From NCBI RefSeq assembly GCF_001457595.1, contig NZ_LN831039.1:2670001-2702000 (forward strand): DNA of 32,000 nucleotides, in the 5' to 3' direction. This DNA is from Mycolicibacterium smegmatis (GTDB lineage: Bacteria > Actinomycetota > Actinomycetes > Mycobacteriales > Mycobacteriaceae). Under the pieces are notes generated by a model. The model was not told where the DNA came from and did not search any database. It saw only the letters and a list, made by a program, of their open reading frames with translations. Both the position numbers and the translations under genes were made by a program. Of this stretch, positions 4,544-28,190 are shown one piece after another (position 1 is the first letter of the stretch; the number at the start of each line of letters is the position of its first letter).

Positions 4544-4578
4544 CAAGCCTGAGCGGCACACCCACCGCTCACTGTGTG

Positions 4579-4624
4579 AAACCCCGCGTCATACCCGGCG
4601 ATCCCGGAGACGCGGGGTTTTGCC
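4579..4624 (+). terminator. Intrinsic-terminator-like hairpin after tsf
   Basis: AAACCCCGCGTC (4579-4590) pairs perfectly with GACGCGGGGTTT (4609-4620). The loop is 18 nt and the stem is followed by TTTTG. Confidence 0.6.
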
Positions 4625-4701
4625 GTCTTCGGAGAACAGCAAAGGGCAAGGAAACCCCGCTCGCCGGCCTGCCGTGTGGTACCACTTGGTACCGTCAACC
4701 C

Positions 4702-6162: not shown

Positions 6163-6277
6163 GGCACAAACCGGCGTGGCGCGTGACATGACCCCGTAAC
6201 CCGGGCCGTGTCCTGTTAACGAACTCGACACCGCGAACGGCTGCGGGTGAAACATCGGGCTCGCAGCATCCCTCATT

Positions 6278-8025: not shown

Positions 8026-8029
8026 TCAC

Positions 8030-8752: not shown

Positions 8753-8775
8753 GTCAACGGCATTGGGAGACATCG

Positions 8776-10284
8776 ATGACCCAAGAGTTAGAGGCACCAC
8801 CGCCCGCCGAACGAGACAAGCTCATGACCACCGAACTGGTGCCGGAGCAGATCCTGCCCAAGGTGATGACCACGTTCGGCCTGACCGCGGCCTATGTGTT
8901 CATCATCTGCTGGATCACCGGATCCTCGGTGATGGCGGCGGGCGGGTGGACCGCGATCCCGATGTGGGTGCTGGGCATCCTCACATTCCTGGTGCCCGCA
9001 GGCATGGCCGTCGTCGAACTGGGCAACCTGTGGCCAGGTCAGGGCGGCGTGTACATCTGGGCCACCCGCACCATGGGGGAGACGTGGGGTTTCATCGGCG
9101 GCTACCTGTCCTGGGTGCCGGTGATCCTCAACGCGGCCTCGTCCCCGGCCGTGGTGCTGCAACTGCTGCTGCTGGCCTTCCACGCCGAAATCGGCCTGAC
9201 CACCAGCATCATCCTGCAGCTGGTGATCCTGTGGACCGTCATCGGGCTGGCGTTGGCGAAACTGGCCGCCAACCAACGCATCATGAACATCGTCTTCATC
9301 GTCTACGGCGTCCTGACCCTGACGATCTTCATCTCCGGCCTGCTGTTCGCCGTCGAGAACGGTTCGGCCACACCGTTCAGCTGGGCCGAGGCCACCATCC
9401 CCAATTTCGCCGTCGCGGGCTTTCTGTACGGCACCGTGCTGCTGTACCTGCTGGGTGTGGAGACCCCGTACAACATGGGCGCGGAGTTCCTCTCGGTGCG
9501 TAAGAGCGGACCGAAGATGATCCTGTGGGGATCCACCGCGCTGGTAGCGATCTACCTGCTCACCACGCTGGGCACCATGATGGCGTTGCCCGGCGACCAG
9601 ATCGACCCGGTGACCGGTGTGATCGGGATGCTCGACGTCGCCGGATTCCCCGGCCTGATGGAAGTCGGCGCGATCGTGCTCGCCTTCATCGTCGTGGTGG
9701 CGCTGATGACCTATCAGGTCGCTTATTCGCGGCTGATCTTCGTCTCCGGCCTCGAACGGCACCTGCCGCGCATCTTCACCCACCTCAACCCGCGTACCCG
9801 CAACCCGGTGACCGCGGTGCTGATCCAGGGCGTGATCTCGTCGCTCATCCTGGTCGGGCTGTACTCGCAGAGCAGCATGGCCAACGTCACCGTCTACCTA
9901 CAGGGCGGACTGTCCACGGTGTGGCTGCTGAGCGGGTTCTTCTTCCTGATCCCGGTGATCGTGGCCCGCAAGAAGTACGCCGATCGCTATGCCAACGAGC
10001 AGTTCTGGCGCATCCCCGGCGGCATGGTCGGTGTGTGGATCACGGTGATCGTCGGCAGCCTGGCCACCGTCGGTGGCATCTACTACTCCTTCGTCACGCC
10101 GTGGATCGACGTACCGTCGGCCACCTGGATGACCTGGGTGGGCTGCATCAGCCTCGGCATGTTCGGCCTGGGTCTGATCGTCTACGTCTTCGGTCGGAGG
10201 TCGGCACACAAGGTCTCCCAGGACGATGCGCTGGCCCATCTCGCGGTGTTCGACCTGACGAAGGAGGACGAAGCGCAGAAGTAG
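8776..10284 (+). CDS. APC-superfamily amino acid/amine permease
   Basis: The roughly 500-aa protein is highly hydrophobic with about 12 predicted TM segments and APC-like motifs (GSSVMAAGGW, GQGGVYIWA). GGGAGA lies 5 nt before the ATG at 8776. Confidence 0.85.
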   Translation: MTQELEAPPPAERDKLMTTELVPEQILPKVMTTFGLTAAYVFIICWITGSSVMAAGGWTAIPMWVLGILTFLVPAGMAVVELGNLWPGQGGVYIWATRTMGETWGFIGGYLSWVPVILNAASSPAVVLQLLLLAFHAEIGLTTSIILQLVILWTVIGLALAKLAANQRIMNIVFIVYGVLTLTIFISGLLFAVENGSATPFSWAEATIPNFAVAGFLYGTVLLYLLGVETPYNMGAEFLSVRKSGPKMILWGSTALVAIYLLTTLGTMMALPGDQIDPVTGVIGMLDVAGFPGLMEVGAIVLAFIVVVALMTYQVAYSRLIFVSGLERHLPRIFTHLNPRTRNPVTAVLIQGVISSLILVGLYSQSSMANVTVYLQGGLSTVWLLSGFFFLIPVIVARKKYADRYANEQFWRIPGGMVGVWITVIVGSLATVGGIYYSFVTPWIDVPSATWMTWVGCISLGMFGLGLIVYVFGRRSAHKVSQDDALAHLAVFDLTKEDEAQK

Positions 10285-10300
10285 CCGTGACCTCGTGACG

Positions 10301-10336
10301 ACCCGGTCGGCCGAACATCGGCCGGCCGGGTTGTTC
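10301..10336 (+). terminator. Hairpin downstream of the permease gene
   Basis: ACCCGGTCGGCCG (10301-10313) pairs with CGGCCGGCCGGGT (10319-10331), with one G-U pair and a 5-nt loop. It is followed by a partly T-rich tract, TGTTCACGTT. Confidence 0.5.
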
Positions 10337-10341
10337 ACGTT

Positions 10342-10365
10342 CGCGCACACAACCGCGCACACAAC
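10342..10365. repeat. Perfect tandem duplication of the 12-mer CGCGCACACAAC
   Basis: Read directly: CGCGCACACAAC at 10342-10353 is repeated at 10354-10365, in the intergenic region upstream of the amine oxidase gene. Confidence 0.9.
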
Positions 10366-10554
10366 GAAATCCGTTGCGCCAGGTCACCACACCGTAACAC
10401 GGGGCCGTGCAGAGTTAACGTCACCGACATTGCCGACGGGATCTACCGAAACGTTCCTGCGCGAGCATTTTCCAAGCGCAGCAAGTTGCGCCGACCCTGC
10501 ACCGGTCACCCGCGATACGCGGTGATCCACCAACAGCGGAGGAAGCACACCGTT

Positions 10555-12528
10555 ATGACGATGGACAGCACGATCACGAACGTCGAGGGCGCGGCCACGG
10601 CAGCGCCGTATCCGCTGGACCCGCTGACCGGCGCCGAGATCGAGGCGGCGGCCGCCGTCATCACCGGATCCGATTACGCCACACCCACCTTGAAGTTCGT
10701 GATGATCCAGCTCGCCGAGCCGGAGAAGAACGAGAAACTGACCTTCGTGGGCATGGACGTCCCGCGCCGCGCGTTCGTGACGATGTACGACGCCGCGGCC
10801 AAACTCATCTACGAGGCAATCGTCGACCTCGGCGCGCGTGTCATCGATTCGTGGACGCCGATTCCGGGACGCTTCCCGTCCTATCTCGTCGAGCACATGA
10901 CCGGCGTGGAGGAGAAGGTGCGGGAGGACCCGCGGTGGCAGGAGGCCATGCGCAGGCGCGGCGTCACCGATTTCAGCCTCGCGATGATCGATCCCTGGCC
11001 CGCAGGGTATTACGGCGCACAGGACCACTACGACAACTCGCCGCTGGTCTGCCGGCCCCTGACGTTCGTGCGGGCCGCACCGTCGGAGAACGGCTACGCA
11101 CGACCGGTCGAGGGGCTGATCGTGACGTTCGACCTGGACAAGATGGAAGTCCTCGACATCGAGGATCACGGTGTGGTGCCGCTGCCGCCCAAGGCCGGCA
11201 ACTACACCGAGCAGTTCATGTTCGACGCCGACAACCGGCCCGCGTTCACCGAGTTCCGGCAGGACGTCAAGAAGATCGAGATCACGCAGCCCGACGGCCC
11301 GAGTTTCACCGTCGACGGGTGGAACGTCACATGGCAGAAGTGGTCCCTTCGTGTGGGTTTCAACGTGCGTGAAGGCCTGACGCTGCACGAGATCACCTAC
11401 AACGACCGTGGCACCGTGCGGCCGATCATGTACCGCGCGGCGTTGTCGGAAATGGTGGTGCCCTACGGCGACTCGTCACCGACGCATTGGAACAAAAACG
11501 TCTTCGACATGGGCGAGGTGGGGATGGGCTTCTCGGCCAACCCCCTGACGCTGGGCTGTGACTGCCTCGGTGAGATCCACTACTTCGACGGCACGGTCAA
11601 CGACTCCGACGGCAACGCCGTGACGATCCCGAACGCCATCTGTATGCACGAGGAGGACTACGGGATCTCCTGGAAGCACACGGATTTCCGCACCGGTGAG
11701 GTCGAGGTGCGTCGTTCGCGGCGTCTGGTGATCTCGATGATCTGCACCGTCGGCAACTACGAGTACGGGTTCTTCTGGTACCTCTACAACGATGCCGGCA
11801 TCGAGATGGAGGTCAAGCTCACGGGCGTGCTCACCACCGGGTCCATCCCCGAGGGCGAGACTCCGCGGTGGGGCAAGATGGTGGCTCCCGGCATGTACGG
11901 CCCCAACCATCAGCACTTCTTCAACTTCCGTATGGACATGAGCATCGACGGTCCGGGAAACAGTGTCTACGAGGTGGATTCGATCCCCGAGCCCGATCCG
12001 GAGCTCAACCCCCACCACAACGCCTGGATCACCAAGGACACCCTGGTGGCCTCGGAGTCCGAGGGTGCGCGGGACTGGGAGTTCTCGACGGGCCGGTACT
12101 GGAAGGTGGTCAACCCGTCGAAGCTCAACGAGTTCGGTGCCCCGGTCGGCTACAAGATCATGCCGAAGGACGTCATCCCGGTGATGGTGCAGGAGGGCTC
12201 GGTGATCTACGACCGCGCCAGGTTCGTCCAGCACAACCTGTGGGTCACCAAGTACGACCCCAGGGAGCTCTACGCGGCGGGCGATTACATGTACCAGTGC
12301 GCCGAGGCGCAGGGGTTGCCGCAGTACGTCGCCGACGATGCGCCACTGGAGAACACCGACGTCGTGCTCTGGTACACCGTCGGCGCACACCATGTGGTGT
12401 GTCCTGAGGACTGGCCGGTGATGCCGTGTCACTACACGGGCTTCAAGCTCAAGCCGGTCGGTTTCTTCGATGGCAATCCCGCACTCGACGTCCCTCCGTC
12501 ACCGCCGGCGGCCTGCCACAACCACTGA
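10555..12528 (+). CDS. Copper-containing primary amine oxidase (topaquinone enzyme)
   Basis: It has the TPQ consensus TVGNYEYGFFWYLY and the copper-ligand motif NHQHFFNF. Similarity to Arthrobacter-type amine oxidases runs the full length (PSFTVDGWNVTWQKWSLRVGF, EMVVPYGD, LGCDCLGEI, ICMHEED). GGAGGAAG lies upstream of the ATG at 10555. Confidence 0.93.
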   Translation: MTMDSTITNVEGAATAAPYPLDPLTGAEIEAAAAVITGSDYATPTLKFVMIQLAEPEKNEKLTFVGMDVPRRAFVTMYDAAAKLIYEAIVDLGARVIDSWTPIPGRFPSYLVEHMTGVEEKVREDPRWQEAMRRRGVTDFSLAMIDPWPAGYYGAQDHYDNSPLVCRPLTFVRAAPSENGYARPVEGLIVTFDLDKMEVLDIEDHGVVPLPPKAGNYTEQFMFDADNRPAFTEFRQDVKKIEITQPDGPSFTVDGWNVTWQKWSLRVGFNVREGLTLHEITYNDRGTVRPIMYRAALSEMVVPYGDSSPTHWNKNVFDMGEVGMGFSANPLTLGCDCLGEIHYFDGTVNDSDGNAVTIPNAICMHEEDYGISWKHTDFRTGEVEVRRSRRLVISMICTVGNYEYGFFWYLYNDAGIEMEVKLTGVLTTGSIPEGETPRWGKMVAPGMYGPNHQHFFNFRMDMSIDGPGNSVYEVDSIPEPDPELNPHHNAWITKDTLVASESEGARDWEFSTGRYWKVVNPSKLNEFGAPVGYKIMPKDVIPVMVQEGSVIYDRARFVQHNLWVTKYDPRELYAAGDYMYQCAEAQGLPQYVADDAPLENTDVVLWYTVGAHHVVCPEDWPVMPCHYTGFKLKPVGFFDGNPALDVPPSPPAACHNH

Positions 12529-12547
12529 GCCGACAGCAGGCAGAGGA

Positions 12548-12584
12548 CAGGCGCGGTATCCCATGCGGATACCGCGCCTGTTTG
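12548..12584 (+). terminator. Intrinsic terminator after the amine oxidase gene
   Basis: A perfect 14-bp stem pairs CAGGCGCGGTATCC (12548-12561) with GGATACCGCGCCTG (12567-12580). The loop is 5 nt and TTTG follows. Confidence 0.7.
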
Positions 12585-12820
12585 CGTGTGTAGTTAACTT
12601 TCTCGGTGAAGCCTGTCACGCGTTCTCAAGACGCGGCGGTATACGTACAGCAAACTCTGTGTGAACGGATGGCCAGCGCGCCACCTGCCGGGGGGCGTTG
12701 TTGGGGCCTAAATCACCTGCGTAAGCGCTGAGAACTGCGGGAGTATCTCCTGAAGGTGGCAAATTTTCGGTCGACAGTGCTGCTAAGGTCGGTACGACTC
12801 GAAACGTTCGGGGGAGTGAG

Positions 12821-12925
12821 ATGAGGGCAAACTACGTGACATTGCGTCTTACGCTGCGGGTGCTCACAATGGTGCTCACGGGCGCCGCGCTGATCGCCAT
12901 GGTGGCGTACAGCGGGGCGCGGTGA
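12821..12925 (+). CDS. Candidate 34-aa small hydrophobic protein (below the ORF-track size cutoff)
   Basis: The ATG at 12821 is preceded by GGGGGAGTGAG. The translation is MRANYVTLRLTLRVLTMVLTGAALIAMVAYSGAR, with a TGA stop at 12923-12925. 29 of 34 codons end in G/C although the surrounding region is GC-poorer. A TAAGGT -10-like hexamer sits at 12784-12789. Confidence 0.35.
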   Translation: MRANYVTLRLTLRVLTMVLTGAALIAMVAYSGAR

Positions 12926-12947
12926 CCGACGACAAGTCTTAGAAGCC

Positions 12948-14072
12948 TCAAGAGAGGGCGCGGCAGACTTCGGCGGTCGCGCGGGCCAGTGACTGCGGAC
13001 CTTCGCGCAACGCCTGCTCGATGGGCGTGCCCGGCACGGTGATCGCGACGAGGCGGTCCACGCCGTGCTCGAGGAGCACGCCGGCGTCGTCTCCGACACG
13101 TCCGGCGAATATCACCACGCGGGCTCCCGCGATGCGCGCCACCTGTGCGACGCCGAACGGGGTCTTGCCCAGGACGGTCTGCGCATCGACGCTGCCCTCG
13201 CCGGTGAACACCCAGTCGGCACCGACCACGGCCTGCGCCAGGCCCACGGTCTCGGCGATCACCTCGACACCGGGCCTGCACTCGGCGCCGAGGAAATCGA
13301 GGAGCGCGAACCCGAGACCGCCCGCTGCGCCCGCGCCGGGGAGTTCTGGCCGCGCGCGGCCCAGCGTCTCCTCGGTCACCACGGCCAACCGCGTCAGCGC
13401 GGCCTCAAGCGTCTCGACATCGAACGGGGTCGCACCCTTCTGCGGGCCGAAAACGGCACTGGCACCGCCCGGCCCGAGGAGGGGAGCCGTGACGTCGGAC
13501 GCGATCCTGATCTGGATGTCCGCCAGGCGCTTGTCGAGCCCGGACAGATCGATGCGGTCCAGCTGTGCCAGGGCCCCGCCGCCCGGTGGCAACGGATTGC
13601 CTGCGGCATCGAGCAGCACCGCGCCGAGCGCGGTGAGCATCCCGGTGCCGCCGTCATTGGTGGCCGAGCCGCCCAACCCGATCAGCAGATCGACCGCGCC
13701 ACGATCCAGCGCCGAGGCGATGAGCTGGCCGACCCCGAAAGTGCTCGCGCTCAGTACGTCTCGGTCGGCCGGTGCGACGAGCTCCAACCCGGACGCGGTG
13801 GCCATCTCGATCACCGCGAGCTTGCGTTCGGGGATGTACCCGTAGTCGGCGCGTACAGGGCGGCCGAGTGGATCGGACACGTCGACCCTCACGCGTTCGC
13901 CGGCAAGGGCGTCGACGACCGCGTCGACGGTGCCCTCACCACCGTCGGCCATCGGGACGCCGACACATTCGGCGTCGGGGAACACCGAATGCACACCCTC
14001 GCGCATTGCGGTCACCGCCTGGGAGGCGGTCATCGACTCCTTGAAGGAGTCCGGGGCAAGAACGATTTTCAT
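12948..14072 (-). CDS. Glycerate kinase (GlxK/GarK class)
   Basis: MKIVLAPDSFKESMTASQA... plus GLGGSATNDGGTGML and TGEGSVDAQT match class I glycerate kinases. The ATG at 14072 lies 7 nt after the upstream gene's stop. Confidence 0.9.
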   Translation of the reverse strand: MKIVLAPDSFKESMTASQAVTAMREGVHSVFPDAECVGVPMADGGEGTVDAVVDALAGERVRVDVSDPLGRPVRADYGYIPERKLAVIEMATASGLELVAPADRDVLSASTFGVGQLIASALDRGAVDLLIGLGGSATNDGGTGMLTALGAVLLDAAGNPLPPGGGALAQLDRIDLSGLDKRLADIQIRIASDVTAPLLGPGGASAVFGPQKGATPFDVETLEAALTRLAVVTEETLGRARPELPGAGAAGGLGFALLDFLGAECRPGVEVIAETVGLAQAVVGADWVFTGEGSVDAQTVLGKTPFGVAQVARIAGARVVIFAGRVGDDAGVLLEHGVDRLVAITVPGTPIEQALREGPQSLARATAEVCRALS

Positions 14073-14079
14073 CCGTTGC

Positions 14080-15033
14080 TCATCTGACAGGGGTGAGCGC
14101 CGGTTTCCCGGCGAGGACCGCGGCGGCATTGTCGATTGCGAGAATACCCATAGCATCGCGTGTGGACTCGCCTGCGCTCGCAATATGCGGTGTGAGCACG
14201 AGATTCGGCGTGTCGAGCAACCGGGGATCGATGTGCGGTTCGTTCTCGAAGACGTCGAGCGCGGCGCCGCGCAGCGCTCCGTTGTGCAGCGCGCTCATGA
14301 GCGCGGCTTCGTCGACGACGCCGCCACGCGCAGTGTTGACGAGGTACGCAGAAGGTTTCATCTTCGCCAGCGTGGCCGCATCGATCAGGTGGCGGGTTTG
14401 CGGAGTCAGCGGCGTGAGCACACTGAGCACATCGGATTCGGCGAGCAGGGTGTCGGTGTCGACGAACTGCACACCGTCCTCGGATGTGCCCGGTTCGCGA
14501 CTGCGTGCGGTGGCCAGAACCTTCATGTCGAAACCTTTGGCACGCTGGGCAACTGCTTTGCCGATGCGGCCGTAGCCGAGGATGCCGAGCGTCGCTGAGG
14601 CACTGATGTCCAGGCCCACCAGCATGCGAGGGCCCCACACCCACGGTTCGCGTGACCGCAGAAACCGGTCGCCGTCGAGCACGCGCCGTGTCGCGGCGAG
14701 GATCAACGCGAACGTGTGATCGGCGGTCGCACGGTCGAGCACGCCGGGCGTGTTGGTCACGGTGACACCGGCCGACACCGCGGCGTCGACGTCGATGTTG
14801 TCATATCCCACAGCCACGTTCGCAATGATCTTGAGCTGCGGTCCCGCGGCTGCCAGCAACGCGGTGTCGACGCGTTCGGTCAACGTGATGACCGCGGCGT
14901 CGGCGCCAGCGAGCCCGGCTTCGAGATCCGCCCGGCTCGGCGGGTCCTCACCACCCACCCGGAACGGGACCCCCAACGATTCCAGGTGTGCCATGGCGCG
15001 GTCGGTGAGCAGTCTCGAAACGTAGATCGTCAA
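14080..15033 (-). CDS. D-isomer-specific 2-hydroxyacid dehydrogenase (glyoxylate/hydroxypyruvate reductase-like)
   Basis: It has the NAD fold GILGYGRIGKAV and the catalytic region VNTARGGVVDE ... LDVFENEP ... TPHIASA. The TTG start at 15033 has AAGGA 6 nt upstream. The alternative start is the ATG at 14994. Confidence 0.88.
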   Translation of the reverse strand: MTIYVSRLLTDRAMAHLESLGVPFRVGGEDPPSRADLEAGLAGADAAVITLTERVDTALLAAAGPQLKIIANVAVGYDNIDVDAAVSAGVTVTNTPGVLDRATADHTFALILAATRRVLDGDRFLRSREPWVWGPRMLVGLDISASATLGILGYGRIGKAVAQRAKGFDMKVLATARSREPGTSEDGVQFVDTDTLLAESDVLSVLTPLTPQTRHLIDAATLAKMKPSAYLVNTARGGVVDEAALMSALHNGALRGAALDVFENEPHIDPRLLDTPNLVLTPHIASAGESTRDAMGILAIDNAAAVLAGKPALTPVR

Positions 15034-15090
15034 CAGCAGTCCTTGTCGCGGGCGTTTCGGTCGATTATGGCGGGTCGGCGGTGCGGTCTG

Positions 15091-15567
15091 TCAGCCGGCG
15101 GATCCGTGCACCTCGACCGTGGGTTCGATTCCGGTGGCTCCGACGACGTCGGCCCACACCTCGAACCCATGCTGGAATGCGACCACGCCGGCCTCCGGAA
15201 GTGCGATTTCGATCGCCTCGAGCACCTCTTCCGGAGATACCCCCAGGTCCAACGCCACCCGGATGTGGCCGGCGATGTGGCCGGGCGACGCCTTGAGGAC
15301 TGTCAGGCTGGTGATGAAGATCAGTTCTTTGGTGGCTTTGTCGAGTCGGCGTTGCTTGGTATATGCCGCCGAAACCAAGCCGTTCGCGGCCTTGAGGACG
15401 TCGAGGTCGGCGCGCGCCATCAATTTGTGGTAGGGCAACACATACCCGCGAGCGCGCGCCATTTGATTGACGTATTCGAGGGCCTCGGACTCACCTGGCG
15501 CGTTGTCGGTATCTGGCACATTGTTCCTTTCGCTGGTTCGGGGGCGTTGGTACTCATGACGGTTCAT
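15091..15567 (-). CDS. Carboxymuconolactone decarboxylase (CMD/AhpD-like) family protein
   Basis: ELIFITSLTVLKASPGHIAGHIRVALDLGVSPEEVLEAIEIA is typical of the CMD domain, and there is no CxxC peroxidase motif. The ATG at 15567 overlaps the GntR stop (ATGA). Confidence 0.72.
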   Translation of the reverse strand: MNRHEYQRPRTSERNNVPDTDNAPGESEALEYVNQMARARGYVLPYHKLMARADLDVLKAANGLVSAAYTKQRRLDKATKELIFITSLTVLKASPGHIAGHIRVALDLGVSPEEVLEAIEIALPEAGVVAFQHGFEVWADVVGATGIEPTVEVHGSAG

Positions 15568-16256
15568 GTCGAGTCGCCATAGAGGTCTTGGAAGATTCGC
15601 GGCAGAGCCGCGCGACTGGCCTGTGCGACGTGGTATTCGCCGGCTCGGCGAGCGCCCTCGATATCGCCGGCGATGATCGCGTCGCATATGGCGGTGATCT
15701 CGGCGAGGCTTGCCGGTTGACGATTCTCAGCAGACAGCGAGTATCGACGGAGAAGTCGAATACGTGCATGCAGCAGGCGAAGGGCCGTGGTGAGCTCTGA
15801 GTTTCCTGCACCCGCGAGCAGAGCGGCGTAGAAGGCATCCTTGGCGCCGAGGACCTCCGTCAGGTCGCCGCTCTCCATCGCCCGTGCGACGTCGGCCACG
15901 CAGTCCGCGAGTGCGCGCTTGTGCTCGACCGTTCCGCGGCGCGCAAACAGCGAGCACGCCAACGATTCCAGCGCCCCGCGAACCTCGAAGAGGTGCTCGG
16001 CGTCGCTGTAGGAGATCTTTGTGACCAGCGCGCCGCGGTTCGCCTCGATCGTGACGAAGCCTTCGCCTTCGAGTTGACGCAGTCCTTCGCGCACGACGGT
16101 GCGCGAAACGTTGTAGGTCTCGCACAGTTCGCGCTCGTTGAGGCGTTCACCTTGTTTGAGCACGCCGTGACTGATCGCGTCGCGCAGTCCGTTGACCAGC
16201 CGTAGTCGTGTCGGCGGCGCAGTGGAGGTCGTTGACGCGGTCGCGCTTTCCTGCAT
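15564..16256 (-). CDS. GntR-family transcriptional regulator, FadR/FCD subfamily
   Basis: It has the wHTH LNERELCETYNVSRTVVREGLRQLEGEGFV and a C-terminal helical FCD-like domain. The start was chosen at the ATG at 16256 (MQESAT...), which has GAGGTGG upstream. In-frame alternatives are at 16361 and 16418. Confidence 0.8.
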   Translation of the reverse strand: MQESATASTTSTAPPTRLRLVNGLRDAISHGVLKQGERLNERELCETYNVSRTVVREGLRQLEGEGFVTIEANRGALVTKISYSDAEHLFEVRGALESLACSLFARRGTVEHKRALADCVADVARAMESGDLTEVLGAKDAFYAALLAGAGNSELTTALRLLHARIRLLRRYSLSAENRQPASLAEITAICDAIIAGDIEGARRAGEYHVAQASRAALPRIFQDLYGDST

Positions 16257-16363
16257 GGGGCCACCTCGGTTCGCTCGGATACGGACGGAGTCGCCTGCCT
16301 GAAGCGATGAGATCGCTTCCCGCACGAGGCGCGCGCACGGCTGAGCGTGCGTGTCCGCCATGA

Positions 16364-16391
16364 ACTGTATGACAATCACTTCTACCGGCAA
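16364..16391 (-). promoter_or_regulatory. Candidate sigma-A promoter for the GntR operon, overlapped by a GTCATACA motif
   Basis: On the minus strand: -35 TTGCCG (16391-16386), a 16-nt spacer, and -10 TACAGT (16369-16364). The motif TGTCATACAGT spans the -10. Confidence 0.4.
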
Positions 16392-16489
16392 AGCGTGCCG
16401 AGCGCCAGTCGGATTCATATCGATGCAGGTAGAAACGCTGGTTTTGCGTGGATCAGCTTGTCATCCTTGACGCGGTGCGCTTGAGAGGC

Positions 16490-16518
16490 TTGACCGTGGC
16501 GCAAGATCGTCATACATT
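16490..16518 (+). promoter_or_regulatory. Candidate sigma-A promoter for the dehydroquinase-like operon, overlapped by a GTCATACA motif
   Basis: -35 TTGACC (16490-16495), a 17-nt spacer, and -10 TACATT (16513-16518). The motif CGTCATACATT spans the -10. The implied leader to the ATG at 16728 is about 200 nt. Confidence 0.45.
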
Positions 16519-16727
16519 CACGACTGGTAGAAATGTGGTGGGGCGCACAGTCAGGTGCGGCCCTCACGCCAAGCAGGCGACACAACCAGGCGGGTTCATC
16601 CCGCGATGCGATGCGACTCGGCAGTCGCGACTTCGAGGCGCCACGCCGTCTTTGCAGTACGACGACGACATCCTCGACCAGGTGTCCCGTGCGTCGTCGC
16701 ACCGTGTCAACGTATTCAGGAGAGAAG

Positions 16728-17264
16728 ATGACACAAAGCAGCACAAAGGTTTTCGGTTGGCAGCGCACCGGAACCCGGCCGTTGCTCATCACCTTGATCG
16801 ACGGTCCCAACATGCCCAATCTGGGCAACCGCAACAAACGTGTCTACGGACCGATCTCGTCCATCACCGCTCTGCAGGACCATGTCCGCCAGCTTGGGGA
16901 AGGGATGGGGGTGACCATCGAGGCGCTGGCGTCCAATCACGAGGGCGAGATCCTGGATGCGATCCATGCCTCCGCGGCCCGTAGCGACGCCTACATCCTC
17001 AACCCTGCCGGTTTGACCAAGACCGGTGAGCCCACGCGTCACGCGCTGGAGGAAACGGGCCGGCCATGGGTGGAGGTTCACTTCGCCAACATCTCCGCAC
17101 CACCGTGGTCGGAACGCGGATTGCCAGGTGGCCCTTGGGAATCGAACTTCACGCGATCGGCAACCGGCATGTCGATGGGATTGCGTCATCACAGCTACCT
17201 CGGCGCGCTTGTGGCCCTCGTCGCCGCAATTGACGACCCCCAGTTCCTGGGTGCCGCCGAGTGA
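16728..17264 (+). CDS. Type II 3-dehydroquinate dehydratase-like protein (divergent paralogue)
   Basis: LIDGPNMPNLGNRNKRVYG ... SNHEGEILDAIH ... ILNPAGLTKTG ... VEVHFANI matches the DHQase II scaffold. AGGAGAG lies 4 nt upstream of the ATG at 16728. Confidence 0.8.
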   Translation: MTQSSTKVFGWQRTGTRPLLITLIDGPNMPNLGNRNKRVYGPISSITALQDHVRQLGEGMGVTIEALASNHEGEILDAIHASAARSDAYILNPAGLTKTGEPTRHALEETGRPWVEVHFANISAPPWSERGLPGGPWESNFTRSATGMSMGLRHHSYLGALVALVAAIDDPQFLGAAE

Positions 17265-17656
17265 CAGGGTTCGACACGGCTTGGGAACCACAGTGGCTGG
17301 CCGTGGTCTCAGACGATGCGGAGTTCCGGCTCATCAGTCGGTGGACGGACGTGGTGTTGCGGTTGACCGACGGTCGCGTGGACCGCAGCTATCGGATCTG
17401 CGGCTCCACGATCGCCGTCGCGGATGCCGGCGAGTCCGCACCGGCGGTCACCCTCACCGGGTCACCCGAGGCGTGGACCGCGTTCCTCACCGCGACCCCC
17501 GAACCGCAAGCGCACCACATTCTCGCGATGCAGCGCCGACGTGAGGACTTTTCGATCGATGGCAAAACCGCTCTGCTGCAGAATCTCAACGTCCTCAACC
17601 GGGTCATGGAGTTGATGCGCACGGTCGCCTCCGGCTACCGACGAGGTGCGGCATGA
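17261..17656 (+). CDS. Hypothetical 131-aa protein, SCP2-like (sterol/lipid carrier fold suspected)
   Basis: The GTG start overlaps the previous stop (GTGA at 17261-17264). The pattern W..(V/L)...F........VLRLTDG......ADVTLTGSPEAW.AFL......ILAMQRR..SIDG resembles SCP2-domain proteins. The fold assignment comes from pattern memory only. Confidence 0.55.
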   Translation: MTGFDTAWEPQWLAVVSDDAEFRLISRWTDVVLRLTDGRVDRSYRICGSTIAVADAGESAPAVTLTGSPEAWTAFLTATPEPQAHHILAMQRRREDFSIDGKTALLQNLNVLNRVMELMRTVASGYRRGAA

Positions 17657-18516
17657 CCGGTTACGAACCGATTGTCGGGCGCTATCTCACGGCGGACATC
17701 GATGGGGTGCCCAACCGGATCTACATCGAGGAATCCGGGGACGGAGTTCCCGTTGTGTGCCTCCACACGGCGGGTTCGGACTCCCGGCAGTACCGCCATA
17801 TGCAGACCGACGACGAGGTTTTGAGCCGGTTCCGCGTCCTGGCCTTCGACCTCCCGTGGCATGGCAAGTCCCTGCCGCCGGACCGATGGTGGCGCCGCGA
17901 GTACCTGCTCACGTCCGAGCTGTATATCGCTTCCGTGATGGCAGTCATCGACGCGCTGGATCTCGAACAGCCGATCGTTGTCGGTTGTTCGATGGCCGGA
18001 TCGTTGGTGTTGGAATTGGCGCTCACACATGGGGATCGCATCGGCGGGGTCATCGGTTTCTCGGGTGCGGCAAAGGTCGAGGGCCGCTTCGACGACTGGT
18101 CGTTGAAGCCGGACATCAACAGCAACCAGGCCGTCCCCTCCTGGACATACGGATTGATGGCACCGCAGAGTCCCGAACCGGCACGTCGCGAGGTCTGGTG
18201 GACGTATGCCCAGGGTGGACCGGGGGTGTACCGGGGAGACACCTACTACTACAGCAACGGGATGGACCTGCGGGGCCGGGAACGCGAAATCGACACGGCC
18301 AGGTGCCCGGTGTATCTGTTCACCGGCGAATACGACTATGCGTGCAGCCCTGAAGAAACCGAGGCGACCATAGCGGCGATACCAGGAGCGCGGGGCGGTG
18401 TGATGCGTGGGATCGGCCACTTTCCCGTCGCAGAGAACTACCCGTTGTGCAAGACCTATCTGTGGCCGGCGTTGCTCGACCTCGCCGATCGCAGGGCGGG
18501 AAACGGAATCGCGTGA
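17653..18516 (+). CDS. Alpha/beta-fold hydrolase
   Basis: The ATG overlaps the previous stop (ATGA at 17653-17656). It has VVCLHTAGSDSRQY, the nucleophile elbow G-C-S-M-A-G, and a C-terminal GIGHFP histidine. Confidence 0.8.
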   Translation: MTGYEPIVGRYLTADIDGVPNRIYIEESGDGVPVVCLHTAGSDSRQYRHMQTDDEVLSRFRVLAFDLPWHGKSLPPDRWWRREYLLTSELYIASVMAVIDALDLEQPIVVGCSMAGSLVLELALTHGDRIGGVIGFSGAAKVEGRFDDWSLKPDINSNQAVPSWTYGLMAPQSPEPARREVWWTYAQGGPGVYRGDTYYYSNGMDLRGREREIDTARCPVYLFTGEYDYACSPEETEATIAAIPGARGGVMRGIGHFPVAENYPLCKTYLWPALLDLADRRAGNGIA

Positions 18517-19319
18517 ACGAGCGCGAGATTCATGAGATGAGGAGCCGATCATTGGCTGACAACCTGGGCGGAGAATTCGTGGGGCGCAGGATTCTCGTGA
18601 CGGGGGGAGCCTCCGGCGTCGGGGAGGCCTGCGTCGGTTATTTTCTGGGTCTGGGCGCCACGGTCGCGTGCATCGACGTCAAGGTACCCGCCCGTGACGA
18701 TGCAAAGTTCGTGCACCTGAGCGCGGATCTGCGCGACCGAGATGCGGTGTCTTCTGCTGTGGCTGAGATCGCCGAGCGGTTCCACGGTTTGGACACACTG
18801 GTCAACAACGCCGGTGTGAGTTTTGTGGGCACGGTCGAGGATGGCACCGAGGACGACTGGAATCGCCTGTGGGACATCAACGTAATGGGGGCTGTCCGCT
18901 CGACCCGTGCCGCCCTGCCGTTGCTCCGCCGATCGGACTCGGCCGCGATCGTGAACGTGTCATCACTGACCGCGACTTCCGGTATACGGCAGCGAGCGGC
19001 CTACACCGCGACCAAAGGCGCCATCGAATCGATGACAAGGGCGATGGCGGCCGACCTTGTCTCCGAAGGCATCACGGTGAACGCGGTGAACCCAGGCACT
19101 GTGGACACCCCGTTCATGGCCGAGCTGGCGGCGCGCGCCGAGGATCCGGTGCAGCGTCGCGCAGATTTCGAATCGCGTCAACCCATCGGCCGCATGGTCA
19201 CACCTGTCGAGGTCGCCCATGCCGTCGCATATTTCGCGCACCCGCTGAGTCGTTCCACGACCGGCAGCACGCTCATGGTGGACGGAGGAATCTTCAACCT
19301 CCACATGACGCGCGCCTGA
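18513..19319 (+). CDS. Short-chain dehydrogenase/reductase (SDR)
   Basis: TGGASGVGEA (TGxxxGxG), NNAG and YTATK (YxxxK) are present. The start was set at a GTG overlapping the hydrolase stop (GTGA at 18513-18516). The alternative is the ATG at 18537. Confidence 0.8.
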   Translation: MNEREIHEMRSRSLADNLGGEFVGRRILVTGGASGVGEACVGYFLGLGATVACIDVKVPARDDAKFVHLSADLRDRDAVSSAVAEIAERFHGLDTLVNNAGVSFVGTVEDGTEDDWNRLWDINVMGAVRSTRAALPLLRRSDSAAIVNVSSLTATSGIRQRAAYTATKGAIESMTRAMAADLVSEGITVNAVNPGTVDTPFMAELAARAEDPVQRRADFESRQPIGRMVTPVEVAHAVAYFAHPLSRSTTGSTLMVDGGIFNLHMTRA

Positions 19320-19367
19320 CCACCTGGTCACCCAAATGTCAAAAACACATGAATCAGGAGCATCTTT

Positions 19368-20123
19368 GTGAGACTTGCAAACAGAGTCGCCATCATCACC
19401 GGGGCAGCACAGGGTATCGGTCGGATCTATGCCGAGAGATTCGCCGAGGAAGGTGCGGCTGTGGTGGTCGCAGACATCAATGAGCCCAAAGCGACCGAGG
19501 TCGCATCATCCATCACGTCGCTGGGCGGCCGCGCAATCGCCGCTGCCGTCGATGTCTCGGATGTCGAATCGGTCAATCGTATGGTCGATTCCGCCGTGGA
19601 GGCGTTCGGAACCGTCGACATCCTGGTCAACAACGCCGCGATCTTCTCCACGCTGAAGATGAAGCCTTTCGAGGAGATCTCGGGCGACGAGTGGGACAAG
19701 CTCTTTGCGGTGAACGCCAAGGGGACGTTCCTGTGCTGTCAGGCTGTTTCGCCGGTGATGCGGAAGAACCAGTACGGCCGCATCATCAACATCTCGTCGA
19801 GCGTCGTGGTGACGGGCCGGCCCAACTATGCCCACTACATCGCGTCCAAAGGCGCCGTCTGGGCGTTGACCCACGCTCTGGCAACGGAAATGGGCACCGA
19901 CGGCATCACGGTCAACACCGTGAGCCCGCACGGCATCATCACCGAAATCCCGCGGGAGACCATCTCGGAAGAGGGGTGGAGGCGAAATCTGGAAGAGCAG
20001 GCACTCAAGCGCAAGGGTGATGCCTCCGACCTGGTCGGAATCCTGCTCTACCTCGCCAGTGACGAAAGCAAGTTCATGACCGGCCAGACCGTCGCCCTGG
20101 ACGCCGGTTTGCGCTTCACCTGA
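19368..20123 (+). CDS. Short-chain dehydrogenase/reductase (FabG-like SDR)
   Basis: ITGAAQGIGRIYA, NNAAIF and YIASKGAV are present. The GTG start at 19368 has AGGAG 7 nt upstream. Confidence 0.88.
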   Translation: MRLANRVAIITGAAQGIGRIYAERFAEEGAAVVVADINEPKATEVASSITSLGGRAIAAAVDVSDVESVNRMVDSAVEAFGTVDILVNNAAIFSTLKMKPFEEISGDEWDKLFAVNAKGTFLCCQAVSPVMRKNQYGRIINISSSVVVTGRPNYAHYIASKGAVWALTHALATEMGTDGITVNTVSPHGIITEIPRETISEEGWRRNLEEQALKRKGDASDLVGILLYLASDESKFMTGQTVALDAGLRFT

Positions 20124-20176
20124 GCTGCGGCTCTGCAGTTCACCCCAAAACATCTGAAGGCTCGGAGCAAACAATC

Positions 20177-21568
20177 ATGGCGAATGCACCCGGCAACAAT
20201 CTGACCCCGAAGAGTGACGATTCGGCGCGCAGGTCCGCGCTGCGAAAGGTCAACCTTCGGTTGATGCCTTTCATCTTCCTGCTGTACCTGGTCAACTACG
20301 TCGACAGAACAGCGCTGGGTATCGCCGCGCCCAACGGTATGAGCGACGAGCTTCAGATGACGGCGACCCTGTTCGGTCTGGCGTCGGGGATCTTCTTCGT
20401 CGGTTACATCCTTCTCGAAGTCCCCAGCGCCATGGCCGCACAACGGACGGGTGCACGCGTGTGGATCGCCCGGATCGCGATCACCTGGGGAGCGGTGGCG
20501 TCACTGACCGCGTTCGTCCCCAACTATCAGTGGTTGATCGTCGCGAGATTCCTGCTCGGTGTGGCAGAGGCCGGCTTCGCGCCGACAGTGTTGCTCTATC
20601 TGACGATCTGGTTCTCCAATCGCGAACGGCCGAAGGCGTTTTCGGTCTACCTGCTCGGCATTCCGATCTCGTCAGTGGTCGCGGGACCTGTGGCGAGCTG
20701 GTTGATCAATGCCGGTGACGGCGTGTTCGGCCTGAGCGGCTGGCGTTTCATGACGTTGATGACGGGCGTGCCGGCGATCATCCTCGGTGTCGCCGCACTC
20801 TTCTGGCTGACCGACCGCCCATCGCAGGCCGCATGGCTGACCGACGCCGAGAAGGAGGCGCTGATCGCAGATCACGATGAGCACACTCCGGCCGAAGCCC
20901 GTGGCCACGCCGGGGGCATGCTGTTCTCTCTGCGGTCCGGGCGCGTGTGGATCATGGGTTTCGCGTACCTGGGGGTGGTGTACAGCCTGTACACCATCGG
21001 GTTCTTCCTGCCCAGTGTGGTTTCGGGCTTTGCCGAGCGGTTCGGCACCGACTTCACCGTGATCGAGAACGGGTTCATCATCGCCGTTCCGTACGTGTTC
21101 GCAGCAGCGGCGCTCATGCTGTGGCCGCGCCATGCCACCCGGTCGGGGGATATCGGGTGGCACGTGCTGATCAGCACCGTGGTGGGCGCACTCGGAATCG
21201 TCATCGCCGCGTTCGCCGGGGATCCGTGGATCGTCATGCTGGGCGTCACGCTCTGCGCCGTAGGGGTGATCTCGGCGATGCCCCTGGTCTACAGCCTGCC
21301 GGCCCGGATTCTGTCCAGCGTGGCCGTCGGCGCGGGTCTGGCACTGGTCAACACGATCGGCAACGTCGGCGGGTTCGCCGGGCCGTTCGTCACCGGTTGG
21401 CTCAGGGACCTGTTCGGCAACGACCAGGGAGCCTTCGCCGTCGTCGCGCTTCTCCTGCTGACGTCCGGAGTGATCTCGGTGGCCGTCCAATCGCGGACAC
21501 ACTCGATCAACGAGGCCCTGCAACGAAATGACCCGGCGTCGCGTCGGCACCGCGCGACGATCGAGTGA
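20177..21568 (+). CDS. MFS transporter, anion:cation symporter (ACS) family, TtuB-like
   Basis: The N-terminal region LRKVNLRLMPFIFLLYLVNYVDRTALGIAAP...LFGLASGIFFVGYILLEVPS...GARVWIARIAITWG resembles the ACS/tartrate-transporter-type signature. About 12 TM segments are predicted. Confidence 0.88.
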   Translation: MANAPGNNLTPKSDDSARRSALRKVNLRLMPFIFLLYLVNYVDRTALGIAAPNGMSDELQMTATLFGLASGIFFVGYILLEVPSAMAAQRTGARVWIARIAITWGAVASLTAFVPNYQWLIVARFLLGVAEAGFAPTVLLYLTIWFSNRERPKAFSVYLLGIPISSVVAGPVASWLINAGDGVFGLSGWRFMTLMTGVPAIILGVAALFWLTDRPSQAAWLTDAEKEALIADHDEHTPAEARGHAGGMLFSLRSGRVWIMGFAYLGVVYSLYTIGFFLPSVVSGFAERFGTDFTVIENGFIIAVPYVFAAAALMLWPRHATRSGDIGWHVLISTVVGALGIVIAAFAGDPWIVMLGVTLCAVGVISAMPLVYSLPARILSSVAVGAGLALVNTIGNVGGFAGPFVTGWLRDLFGNDQGAFAVVALLLLTSGVISVAVQSRTHSINEALQRNDPASRRHRATIE

Positions 21569-21580
21569 GACGGCCCTCGA

Positions 21581-22009
21581 TCAGTCCACCGCGTGCGCCA
21601 GCAGTCGCTTGAGTTCGCGGCGCTGTGCCTCCGTGAGGTTTGCGAGCGCCTCCTCCTCTGCCGCCAGCGCGGCCGCCTCGGCCCGCTTGAGCAGCTTGGC
21701 GCCCTCGGTGGTGAGTTCGGCGGGTAGCGCGCGCCCGGAGGATGCCGCCTCGGGACGCCGGACGGCGCCTTTTTCCTGAAGCGCTCGCACCACGTTGTTC
21801 ATGGCTTGCGGCGAGACGTTGATGTGACGCGCCAGTTCGGCGTTGGACTGCCCGGGCTGTGCGGAAAGGATTCGCAGACAGACGAATTCGGGAAGTGTCA
21901 AACCCAGCTGCTGCAACTGCGCGGCGACGGCGGGCTGGAGCACCGCGGTCACGCGGTACATCAGAAAGCCCAGCGGCTGAACCTCGAGGATGTCGCTCAT
22001 ATCAAGCAT
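21581..22009 (-). CDS. MarR-family transcriptional regulator
   Basis: LGLTLPEFVCLRILSAQPGQSNAELARHINVSPQAMNNVVRALQEKGAV is a MarR wHTH. The start is at the ATG at 22009 (MLDMSD) or 22000. The 396-aa track ORF extension is antisense to the methyltransferase gene and is rejected. Confidence 0.85.
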   Translation of the reverse strand: MLDMSDILEVQPLGFLMYRVTAVLQPAVAAQLQQLGLTLPEFVCLRILSAQPGQSNAELARHINVSPQAMNNVVRALQEKGAVRRPEAASSGRALPAELTTEGAKLLKRAEAAALAAEEEALANLTEAQRRELKRLLAHAVD

Positions 22010-22017
22010 ATTGACAC

Positions 22018-22726
<709 letters not shown>

Positions 22727-22861
22727 ACCCCTCCGGCCGGCGACACGCGGAATTCGCAAGGCCCCGGGCATTGCCTGACGCCTGCCATGAGGCAGGATGG
22801 AGCTGCCGTCCTGGGCAATCGCCTGGATGGCTCTCTAATGCGAGGAGTGCCGAGGAGACCG

Positions 22862-28108: not shown

Positions 28109-28190
28109 TCCTCTCCTGCGCGAACGTGGGCTTGTGGTCGAACTTTCGGCGCAATCACGCACACAAGGCGACGTTCGATGCCGGGCCTGC

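Follow-up and report, generated by a model that had tools for sequence, protein, structure and literature searches.

The 32-kb window analyzed here (Mycolicibacterium smegmatis contig NZ_LN831039.1, positions 2,670,001–2,702,000) carries a block of ten genes at 12948–21568, called by open reading frame (ORF) listing and by Pfam and NCBIfam profile searches, and corresponding approximately to MSMEG_2528–2537 of M. smegmatis mc2 155. The genes are arranged in two divergent arms on either side of a 471-bp control region (16257–16727). The left arm, on the minus strand, consists of a GntR regulator (MSMEG_2531, 15564–16256), a protein of the carboxymuconolactone decarboxylase (CMD) fold and family (15091–15567; PF02627, 41 bits), a D-isomer 2-hydroxyacid dehydrogenase of the glyoxylate/hydroxypyruvate reductase type (14080–15033; 2-Hacid_dh_C, 203 bits) and, as the last gene of the operon, a glycerate kinase of the GarK/GlxK family (about MSMEG_2528, 12948–14072; PF02595, 467 bits). 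The regulator has an N-terminal GntR winged helix-turn-helix domain (PF00392, 57.5 bits) and an FCD domain (PF07729, 85.3 bits), which places it in the FadR subfamily. The right arm, on the plus strand, encodes a divergent type II dehydroquinase paralog (annotated aroQ, MSMEG_2532, 16728–17264; DHquinase_II PF01220, 102 bits; DHQ-like hereafter), a 131-aa protein matched to the SCP2 fold by its predicted structure (17261–17656), an alpha/beta hydrolase (17653–18516; Abhydrolase_1 and Abhydrolase_6 matches), two classical short-chain dehydrogenases/reductases, SDR1 (18537–19319; adh_short_C2, 182 bits; TGxxxGxG and YxxxK motifs) and SDR2 (19368–20123; full-length match to PDB 8cxa), and a major facilitator superfamily (MFS) transporter related to the anion:cation symporter (ACS) group (20177–21568; MFS_1, 168 bits).

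ATGA or GTGA overlaps occur at the GntR/CMD, DHQ-like/131-aa and 131-aa/hydrolase junctions, and the other same-strand gaps measure 7–57 nt (7 nt between reductase and glycerate kinase), so two divergent operons are expected. An ATG start of the GntR gene at 16256, preceded by the Shine-Dalgarno sequence AGGTGG, gives the 471-bp spacer exactly, and the DHQ-like start is preceded by GGAGAG. MSMEG_2531 is given as a FadR-like GntR regulator of 253 aa (PMC2018728). This length implies a GTG start at 16325 and a spacer of 402 bp. The ten gene calls, the two arms and the 471-bp spacer put forward in the original prediction, which was made from the sequence alone, were all recovered by the ORF listing and profile searches. 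It had also stated that enzymes diagnostic of quinate/shikimate, protocatechuate and tartrate breakdown are missing from the block, and this held: Pfam and NCBIfam detected neither a quinate/shikimate or tartrate dehydrogenase nor a dehydroshikimate dehydratase or a dioxygenase among the ten proteins. In the literature searched, mostly outside subscription journals, no characterized orthologous cluster was found, in line with the original prediction, and no functional study of MSMEG_2527–2538; the locus tags are mentioned there only in a GntR census, a remark on CRISPR interference (CRISPRi) vulnerability and proteomics lists.

Neighborhoods were examined for six collection proteins and for 59 loci that a scan of 185,579 species genomes with the DHQ-like alignment had located, the latter being compared by BLASTP, a hidden Markov model of the 131-aa family and all-against-all clustering. 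Fifteen loci, the window and at least 14 others from Actinobacteria and Proteobacteria, with a DHQ-like identity of at least 63% except in Thermocrispum (L017, 57%), were grouped as type A. All 15 encode a DHQ-like protein, the hydrolase and an MFS transporter; an SCP2-like gene was counted in 14, with one fusion in addition, the GntR gene in 14 and the CMD gene in 11. A SnoaL-like protein (6/15) and an aldehyde dehydrogenase resembling succinate-semialdehyde dehydrogenase (SSADH; 4/15) are variable extras, and a 2-hydroxyacid dehydrogenase homolog occurs within 10 kb of the core in seven loci. Eleven of the 15 modules contain no oxidoreductase, which implies that the core chemistry is redox-free. 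The comparison shows an invariant core formed by a FadR-type GntR regulator, an ACS-type MFS transporter, the DHQ-like enzyme, the 131-aa SCP2-fold protein and a hydrolase with a Ser-Asp-His triad, which the CMD protein joins in 11 of 15 loci. The two arms had been predicted to belong together, and this link is borne out by the company of GntR and CMD with the DHQ-like, SCP2-like and hydrolase genes in 11–14 of 15 loci across phyla and by a conserved operator. The core is thus co-conserved, but the ten genes do not travel as one unit as had been supposed: both SDRs are found only in the window, in Mycobacterium sp. 21AC1 (L007) and in L017, with SDR1 alone in L012 (4/15 loci), the glycerate kinase occurs in 3/15, and the window transporter is only about 33% identical to the other type A copies. 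The SCP2-like protein is likewise only 30–40% identical to its type A counterparts.

The DHQ-like protein passes only the broad PF01220 model (102 bits against 23.3). It scores below the cutoff of the aroQ equivalog TIGR01088 (85.7 vs. 169.85 bits) and below those of all four PRK05395 aroQ subfamily models (72–88 vs. 130–195 bits). All 11 subfamily members compared share the catalytic residues N28, R35, Y40, N92, E116 and H118, whose positions match those of the solved enzymes, and the motifs GPN, R...Y, N.EG, NP.G and EVH are retained. In Mycobacterium tuberculosis numbering, the catalytic set is Asn12, Arg19, Tyr24, Asn75, Glu99 and His101, and the C4 and C5 hydroxyls of dehydroquinate are bound by His81, Asp88 of the neighboring subunit and Arg112. 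The hydroxyl-binding positions are altered across the subfamily, with His81 changed to Lys or Thr and Asp88 to His, and the Arg108/Arg112 loop (HAREEFRRHS) is replaced by a longer, Trp-containing loop (ISAPPWSxRGLPGGPW). Judged from its sequence, the protein is probably a neofunctionalized paralog and not a dehydroquinase, and it should act on another substrate, in which it would form an enolate next to a carbonyl and catalyze hydration or dehydration at the beta position, on a carboxylate-bearing carbon. MSMEG_2532 was non-vulnerable in CRISPRi, and its aroQ label has already entered the discussion of shikimate redundancy and drug-target vulnerability (PMC9430761).

The 131-aa protein has no Pfam or NCBIfam match at E ≤ 0.01, SCP2 families included. 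Its AlphaFold model (pLDDT 89.9) consists of a five-stranded sheet packed on helices, and a Foldseek search of this model against the PDB returned 6h6p, 3bn8, 8af2 and 2cx7 as top matches (E-values of 4e-4 to 2e-3, probability 1.0, TM-scores of 0.48–0.65), all of them SCP2 proteins (UbiJ-SCP2, AF1534 and SCP2, with TM-scores of 0.56–0.62). On the predicted structure, the protein is a member of the SCP2 fold and of a new family without a Pfam entry; the SCP2-like assignment made originally held at the level of the fold, where no sequence model detects it. The family comprises 33 clusters in a collection of 5.8 billion proteins and 261 representatives at E ≤ 1e-3 among 1.84 billion, and its conserved residues are polar (RWT, HH, RRxDF, QNL). 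Wherever the two genes could be placed in a type A locus, the SCP2-like gene lies immediately before that of the hydrolase; at L009, L010 and L011 the ORF calls were over-extended and overlapping. In the window the two genes overlap. Five representatives of 414–434 aa and a 426-aa Thermocrispum ORF (L017) are natural fusions with an N-terminal SCP2-like part and a C-terminal alpha/beta hydrolase, which brings the fusion to at least six lineages. By Rosetta-stone reasoning, these fusions suggest that the 131-aa protein is a subunit or substrate-presenting domain of the hydrolase, and the SCP2-fold protein is best regarded as a dedicated hydrolase partner. The original prediction had left it as a bystander, which the fusions contradict, and had given the CMD protein no role.

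The hydrolase triad Ser113-Asp228-His256, assigned by position in the sequence, is invariant in 14 orthologs, as are the nucleophile elbow GCSM(A/G)GS (G111-C-S113) and many Arg, Trp and Tyr residues. The best NCBIfam matches of the hydrolase, PcaD and PcaDC, lie far below cutoff (PcaD TIGR02427, 53.9 vs. 255.85 bits), and weak matches extend to esterases, meta-cleavage hydrolases and zearalenone lactonase. For the CMD protein, PcaC is the sole curated match (TIGR02425, 19.3 vs. 155.7 bits), so that on these profiles it is assigned to the CMD superfamily only. H47, K48, H101, E117, E120 and E125 are invariant in the CMD protein, whose start is uncertain, the orthologs measuring 136–143 aa. An AhpD-like peroxidase role was considered and rejected, as neither the window protein nor 10 orthologs contain a CxxC motif.

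The control region contains two operator-like sites of the TNGT-N3-ACNA type, site 1 (TGTATGACAATC, 16366–16377, plus strand) and site 2 (TGTATGACGATC, 16505–16516, minus strand), which is inverted relative to site 1. Operators of the FadR subfamily are palindromes of the form TNGT-N(0–3)-ACNA close to the regulator's own promoter, and a TGT-N3-ACA core is of this type. Sites 1 and 2 are the only matches to the pattern in the 32 kb (0.13 expected), but the count involves circularity, the pattern having been derived from the same sequence. When the spacer is aligned with that of Mycobacterium sp. 21AC1, the two sites stand out as conserved islands in an otherwise diverged spacer, with AT.GTCATACATTC as the conserved block at site 2. 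Site 1 is kept in the spacers of L007, L001, L003, L009 and L068. In nine divergently organized loci, the GntR-DHQ spacers (3.35 kb in all) contain 14 copies of GTA[TC]GAC[AG]A and the other 187 kb only two, with at least two sites in six of the nine, and the TGT-ATG-ACA cores, present twice and inverted in the window spacer, are conserved across six such loci. A predicted promoter-like site of the right operon, TTGACC-17 nt-TACATT (16490–16518, plus strand), is the sole consensus match in 16150–16800 (0.2 expected by chance), and site 2 overlaps its −10 hexamer TACATT. We infer that one GntR repressor controls both arms through inverted TGTATGAC(A/G)ATC sites, which are the predicted operator. 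The scanned region showed no terminator-like site and no further operator copy, and 12500–22000 contains no Rfam family match. If the predicted promoter is real, the right operon would have a leader of about 200 nt (16518–16727), which has no Rfam match and corresponds to no known riboswitch; within this leader, GTACGACGA at 16657 is a third operator-like core, weaker than the other two, and 16657–16702 contains a short inverted repeat.

The genes outside the core have affinities of their own. SDR2 matches PDB 8cxa, a structural-genomics "FabG" entry deposited as '3-oxoacyl-ACP reductase', over its full length (536 bits) and BbsD (7pcs_B) with 167 bits; its best NCBIfam model is the SDR-type pyridoxal 4-dehydrogenase (247 bits vs. 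a cutoff of 325). The transporter is 90% identical to its counterpart in L007 and 69% to that in L017, and only 31–37% to those of the other core loci; its best match is 2A0114 (TIGR00893, 251 vs. 395 bits), with HpaX also below cutoff (231 bits). The reductase is nearest to glyoxylate reductase NF009714 (292.8 vs. 455 bits; GhrB, 221 vs. 492 bits), and its best PDB matches, 6bii, 5aov and 2dbq, are again glyoxylate/hydroxypyruvate reductases. The glycerate kinase exceeds the cutoff of TIGR00045 (436.6 vs. 168.45 bits, 372/375 positions covered), and its 2-kinase and 3-kinase equivalog scores are both below cutoff.

Homologs of the SDR pair also occur in a second family of loci, type B, in which the DHQ-like protein is 54–59% identical to the window copy, SDR1 52–61% and SDR2 61–71%. 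SDR1 and SDR2 directly precede the DHQ-like gene there, in a strongly conserved operon of 13–15 loci. Other genes of this operon code for an IclR regulator, a TRAP or MFS transporter and four kinds of protein identified by Pfam and NCBIfam in the representative loci L031, L037, L020, L024 and L029: a family III CoA-transferase, a DUF35 protein, a thiolase of the SCPx type that is closest to BbsB among the NCBIfam models, and thioesterase-like hydrolases. The match of SDR2 to BbsD and the neighbors in the type B operon indicate that the M. smegmatis SDR pair derives from a Bbs-like module family. Type B comprises L020, L022–L024, L026–L031, L037, L038, L040 and L047 (e.g., L031:2951–13523 and L037:1848–10504), from Variovorax, Achromobacter, Azospirillum, Sphingomonas, Nocardia, Streptomyces, Planctomycetota and Verrucomicrobia. 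The genes follow the order alpha/beta hydrolase, DUF35, BbsB-like thiolase, IclR, family III CoA-transferase, thioesterase-like hydrolase(s), SDR, SDR, DHQ-like, TRAP/MFS, a Bbs-like logic without acyl-CoA dehydrogenase or crotonase, of which no description was found in the literature searched. In type C loci, tandem DHQ-like genes are accompanied by a molybdenum hydroxylase, an FAD oxidoreductase, an amidohydrolase and SSADH. A search of plasmids found only such distant tandem-DHQ loci. One of them, on Mesorhizobium plasmid pWSM4875 (L069, 8524–14340), has a three-subunit molybdenum hydroxylase of the xanthine dehydrogenase family plus an ArgE/DapE deacylase and a GntR regulator, and L051, L054, L056–L060 and L062 are also of type C. 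From its gene content, type C has the look of a cluster for N-heterocycle catabolism in which the dehydroquinase fold is employed.

These comparisons indicate that the M. smegmatis locus is a mosaic of a type A core, an SDR pair with its own MFS transporter, and a reductase-kinase pair, shared with L007 and, in a different arrangement, with L017. In L007, five genes (MFS, DeoR, zinc-dependent alcohol dehydrogenase, DeoC aldolase and FGGY kinase) lie between the CMD gene and the reductase-kinase pair; this DeoR/polyol module implies that the pair is not rigidly tied to the core, and the reductase and glycerate kinase are lineage-specific add-ons. Other modules adjoin the core elsewhere. A second module recurs beside it in four to five type A loci (L066:2793–7327, L013:14455–19000, L014:14448–19936, L009:10251–16744) and encodes a LysR or IclR regulator, a family III CoA-transferase, a glyoxalase-fold (VOC) protein, a 2-hydroxyacid dehydrogenase and a protein of the hydroxymethylglutaryl-CoA lyase subfamily (346 bits, above cutoff); in Streptomyces it adds a GntP permease and a glycerate kinase. 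Just downstream of the core in L068 (10879–16568) are genes for a rhodanese, an S-Me-THD (hydantoinase-like) protein, a GST, and proteins of the urocanase and aromatic amino acid lyase families, a set that we take to resemble ergothioneine/thiourocanate catabolism.

The cluster is an accessory island. As the original prediction had it, the block lies between housekeeping genes. These are rpsB and tsf to its left and pyrH, frr and cdsA to its right, and the block has a GC content of 0.61–0.66 against 0.68–0.70 in the flanks. The accessory insertion between tsf and pyrH exceeds the cluster and extends over about 4.6–22.7 kb. The closest relative found, in Mycobacterium sp. 21AC1, occupies the same site, and mycobacterial homologs of the 131-aa protein were found only in M. 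smegmatis and two other Mycobacterium isolates. The window DHQ-like protein is 90% identical to that of 21AC1 and 72–78% to the copies of Comamonas, Paraburkholderia, Arthrobacter, Streptomyces, Thioclava and Bordetella, its subfamily reaching 77–78% in Comamonas testosteroni, Paraburkholderia bannensis and Streptomyces. CMD orthologs from proteobacteria and actinobacteria are 73–84% identical (93% in L007, 68% in L012), and the hydrolase is 63–75% identical across phyla. Taken together, CMD, hydrolase and DHQ-like proteins are 72–84% identical between M. smegmatis and the six genera named; toward Comamonas and Paraburkholderia the values are 77–78% for the DHQ-like protein, 73–81% for CMD and 73–75% for the hydrolase. 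Such identity between Actinobacteria and Betaproteobacteria indicates horizontal transfer. An integrase (Comamonas) or a transposase (Thioclava) adjoins some core copies, and by these signs the core is a mobile module across phyla. A group II intron reverse transcriptase/maturase beside the Streptomyces copy (L009:708–2138) and a DDE transposase beside the Thioclava copy (L010:5278–6732) are further signs of its mobility. The Comamonas core island (L001:13620–20476) is bounded by a phage-type integrase and by a GAP1-N1/DO-GTPase1/DO-GTPase2/GASH/GAAD set, a GTPase-centered conflict-system architecture.

The remainder of the insertion in the window (4576–12528 and 21581–22726) contains an amiC-like amidase, an FtsX-like permease with an ABC ATPase, an amino-acid permease, a copper amine oxidase and a MarR and S-adenosylmethionine methyltransferase pair. 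The 396-aa ORF at 21581–22771 (minus strand) looks over-extended, as only its C-terminal ~170 aa are MarR and it overlaps the methyltransferase gene on the opposite strand. Farther right, two long ORFs with similar codon-position GC overlap on opposite strands (26450–28108, plus; 26711–28342, minus); the minus-strand ORF, the one of the two that was searched, has no Pfam match. A second GntR/FCD regulator (28191–28910, minus strand) and a SorC-type regulator (28967–29989, minus strand) lie nearby.

The analysis thus establishes which genes the cluster contains, that its core is co-conserved and shares an operator, that the SCP2-fold protein occurs fused to the hydrolase, and that the locus is a mosaic. 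The reading that we favor, with a probability of roughly 45%, is that of a horizontally acquired catabolic island for an imported organic acid, in which a redox-free core is combined with peripheral entry and exit modules under one GntR regulator. As to the individual reactions, their order and the substrate, we infer the following. In M. smegmatis-type loci only, the imported acid would be oxidized by the SDRs to a carbonyl or lactone; with a different MFS transporter, the SDR pair would admit a more reduced relative of the core substrate and create the carbonyl or lactone needed by the dehydratase. The DHQ-like enzyme would then carry out a dehydroquinase-type beta-elimination on a carboxylated ring or lactone, the CMD protein would decarboxylate the product or shift its double bond, and the SCP2-assisted hydrolase would open the ring. 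CMD protein and hydrolase might act in a PcaC/PcaD-like manner, from a carboxy-butenolide through an enol-lactone to an open-chain oxo-acid. In M. smegmatis, a C3 unit (hydroxypyruvate or tartronate semialdehyde) would finally be reduced and phosphorylated to phosphoglycerate, and elsewhere an SSADH-like enzyme would oxidize an aldehyde acid, a product suggested by the SSADH-like genes of four core loci. The order of oxidation, dehydration and hydrolysis proposed originally is thereby kept, but the SDRs, the reductase and the kinase move to the periphery, most core loci being without an oxidoreductase, and the CMD and SCP2-fold proteins gain roles. The substrate may be an anionic polyhydroxy acid, possibly alicyclic, as was proposed originally.

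Several points weigh against this reading. In the literature searched, no datum on substrate, activity or expression was found for the cluster genes. The similarity to PcaC and PcaD is too weak (19 and 54 bits) to establish a lactone chemistry, and whether the DHQ-like enzyme hydrates or dehydrates is not readable from its sequence. The SCP2-fold partner, together with the SnoaL protein of six core loci, hints at a more hydrophobic substrate than a sugar-like acid. The absence of CMD from four of 15 core loci means that it may not be essential to the core, and the position of the reductase-kinase pair behind a DeoR/polyol operon in L007 means that its link to the pathway may be opportunistic.

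A bolder form of the proposal, which we consider a long shot, is that the core constitutes a redox-free pathway not known before, which would act on lactone or keto acids with a C(OH)(COO−)-CH2-C(=O) unit and involve two new activities and an obligate SCP2 subunit. The fungal itaconate derivatives 2-hydroxyparaconate and paraconic acids may be candidate substrates; the unit, which is that of the dehydroquinase substrate, also occurs in related alkylcitrate lactones of fungi. Dehydration would yield a carboxy-butenolide, followed by a double-bond shift or decarboxylation and by enol-lactone hydrolysis to formylsuccinate and then succinate semialdehyde, matching the SSADH-like genes. The second module described above would split ring-opened itatartarate into acetyl-CoA and hydroxypyruvate, and this proposed release of hydroxypyruvate would explain the M. 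smegmatis reductase and kinase. A study that found a glyoxalase-fold 2-hydroxyparaconate lactonase in Pseudomonas observed no bacterial assimilation of these compounds (PMC9875883). Among other routes considered, vitamin B6 (pyridoxal/4-pyridoxate) catabolism, suggested by the SDR2 match and the SSADH-like genes, was rejected, as the core has no ring-opening oxygenase, lactamase-type lactonase or amidase. The tartrate, glucarate, threonate, apionate, ascorbate and inositol pathways were rejected as well, no signature enzyme of theirs being present.

Three other explanations compete with the catabolic island built around a redox-free core. The type B operons bring to mind a CoA-independent, beta-oxidation-like route, a thioester-free counterpart of the Bbs pathway, in which the DHQ-like enzyme would hydrate an unsaturated acid of the substituted-succinate or itaconate type, the new beta-hydroxyl would be oxidized by the SDR pair, the SCP2-assisted hydrolase would perform a retro-Claisen cleavage of the beta-dicarbonyl, and the CMD protein would decarboxylate the beta-keto acid. 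Such a route would use every right-arm enzyme of M. smegmatis in gene order, and the SDR1-SDR2-DHQ-like trio is indeed the conserved end of the 13–15-locus type B operon, with the family III CoA-transferase, DUF35, the BbsB-like thiolase and thioesterase-like hydrolases among its partners. SDR2 matches BbsD with 167 bits, and type B operons lack a crotonase, leaving the DHQ-like protein as the candidate hydratase. We nevertheless regard the route as unlikely, because 11 of 15 core loci do without a dehydrogenase, so that the core needs no oxidation between hydration and cleavage. Moreover, the window DHQ-like protein falls in the core clade (72–78%; 90% to L007) and is only 54–59% identical to the Bbs-like clade, and both SDRs retain full catalytic motifs, unlike the BbsC pseudo-subunit.

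The mosaic make-up could also reflect loose adjacency: several independent units (the core, an SDR-SDR-MFS unit and a pair that salvages hydroxypyruvate/glycerate) would share a variable insertion site without forming a single pathway. Co-conservation with the core does not extend to the SDRs, the M. smegmatis-type transporter, the reductase or the kinase, the five unrelated genes in Mycobacterium sp. 21AC1 separate CMD from the reductase-kinase pair, and the same insertion site has taken up an unrelated amine oxidase, a permease and an ABC/FtsX pair. Against this stand the tight spacing of the same-strand genes (7–57 nt or overlaps), the lack of a terminator-like site or further operator copy in the scanned region and the single regulator for the whole block. 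The SDR pair and this type of transporter, furthermore, recur with CMD, GntR, the DHQ-like protein and the SCP2-hydrolase fusion in Thermocrispum L017, and 7/15 loci have a 2-hydroxyacid dehydrogenase no more than 10 kb from the core, so we consider mere adjacency doubtful. The least likely rival is an ordinary quinate/shikimate route, with an SDR as quinate dehydrogenase, the DHQ-like protein as a catabolic dehydroquinase (QsuC/QutE-like) and the protocatechuate genes elsewhere. Although the DHquinase_II score is above the Pfam gathering threshold, the catalytic residues are intact, the public annotation reads aroQ, and a transporter and dehydrogenases are present, the protein is below the four NCBIfam aroQ subfamily cutoffs and the equivalog cutoff, and the C4/C5 hydroxyl-binding residues are replaced across the whole subfamily. 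Neither a quinate dehydrogenase of the AroE/YdiB or PQQ type nor a dehydroshikimate dehydratase is encoded in the cluster, and dehydrogenases are missing altogether from most loci; the DHQ-like gene is instead locked to the SCP2-hydrolase pair and to CMD, which have no role in a quinate pathway. Such a route is therefore very improbable.

M. smegmatis is a model organism, and here ten contiguous genes, one with a solved structure (8cxa), are without an assigned pathway. The cluster offers a target for function discovery, with a regulator and its predicted operator, three highly conserved enzymes and natural fusions suited to structural work. The comparison delimits a compact mobile module, spread across phyla and with a conserved operator, and a new SCP2-fold family that serves as obligate partner of a hydrolase. 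If the substrate is a fungal or plant lactone acid, the cluster would represent a new route of carbon flow, possibly a detoxification; otherwise it would provide a clean example of catabolic islands built from interchangeable entry, core and exit modules.

Among known systems, AroQ, QsuC and QutE and the qsu/qui clusters share with this locus the fold, Pfam family and catalytic set of the dehydroquinase, an MFS transporter, dehydrogenases and a local repressor. In the present family, however, the hydroxyl-binding residues are replaced and an SCP2-fold protein and a hydrolase are always partners. PcaC and PcaD likewise combine a CMD-fold protein with an alpha/beta hydrolase encoded together, and the proposed sequence of decarboxylation or double-bond shift and lactone hydrolysis would be similar, but the scores are low (19/156 and 54/256), PcaB, PcaHG and PcaIJF are absent here, and the hydrolase is partnered with or fused to an SCP2-fold protein. 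The two adjacent SDRs resemble the BbsC/BbsD pair of the Bbs operon (BbsEF, BbsCD, BbsAB), which serves benzylsuccinate beta-oxidation; unlike that operon, the M. smegmatis cluster encodes neither a CoA-transferase or ligase nor a thiolase, the DHQ-like protein stands in the place of the crotonase BbsH, the hosts are aerobic and both SDRs keep their catalytic motifs. The GarR/GarK, Ttu and GRHPR-glycerate kinase systems also pair a C3 oxo-acid reductase with a GarK/GlxK kinase, and their ACS transporters, such as DgoT, GudP and TtuB, belong to the group in which the window transporter has its best match, below the cutoff. The reductase here, by contrast, is a D-2-hydroxyacid dehydrogenase of the GRHPR type and not a beta-hydroxyacid dehydrogenase of the GarR type, and GudD/GarL, tartrate dehydrogenase and glyoxylate carboligase, known from glucarate, tartrate and glyoxylate catabolism, are missing from the cluster. 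The iol and oxidative uronate pathways, which oxidize, beta-eliminate, open a ring, decarboxylate and end with an aldehyde dehydrogenase or reductase, are alike in logic only, a functional analogy without homologous enzymes. Enzyme-linked SCP2 domains, such as the C-terminal domain of alkylsulfatase SdsA1, UbiJ and SCPx, have the same fold and a hydrolytic-enzyme partner, and they recruit or cradle the substrate. The present family differs from them in having no Pfam SCP2 match, in conserving polar residues rather than residues that line a lipid tunnel, and in its alpha/beta hydrolase partner, a pairing not found described. A repressor-controlled catabolic island is a known kind of system, of which this cluster, with its two unusual components, would be a new form.

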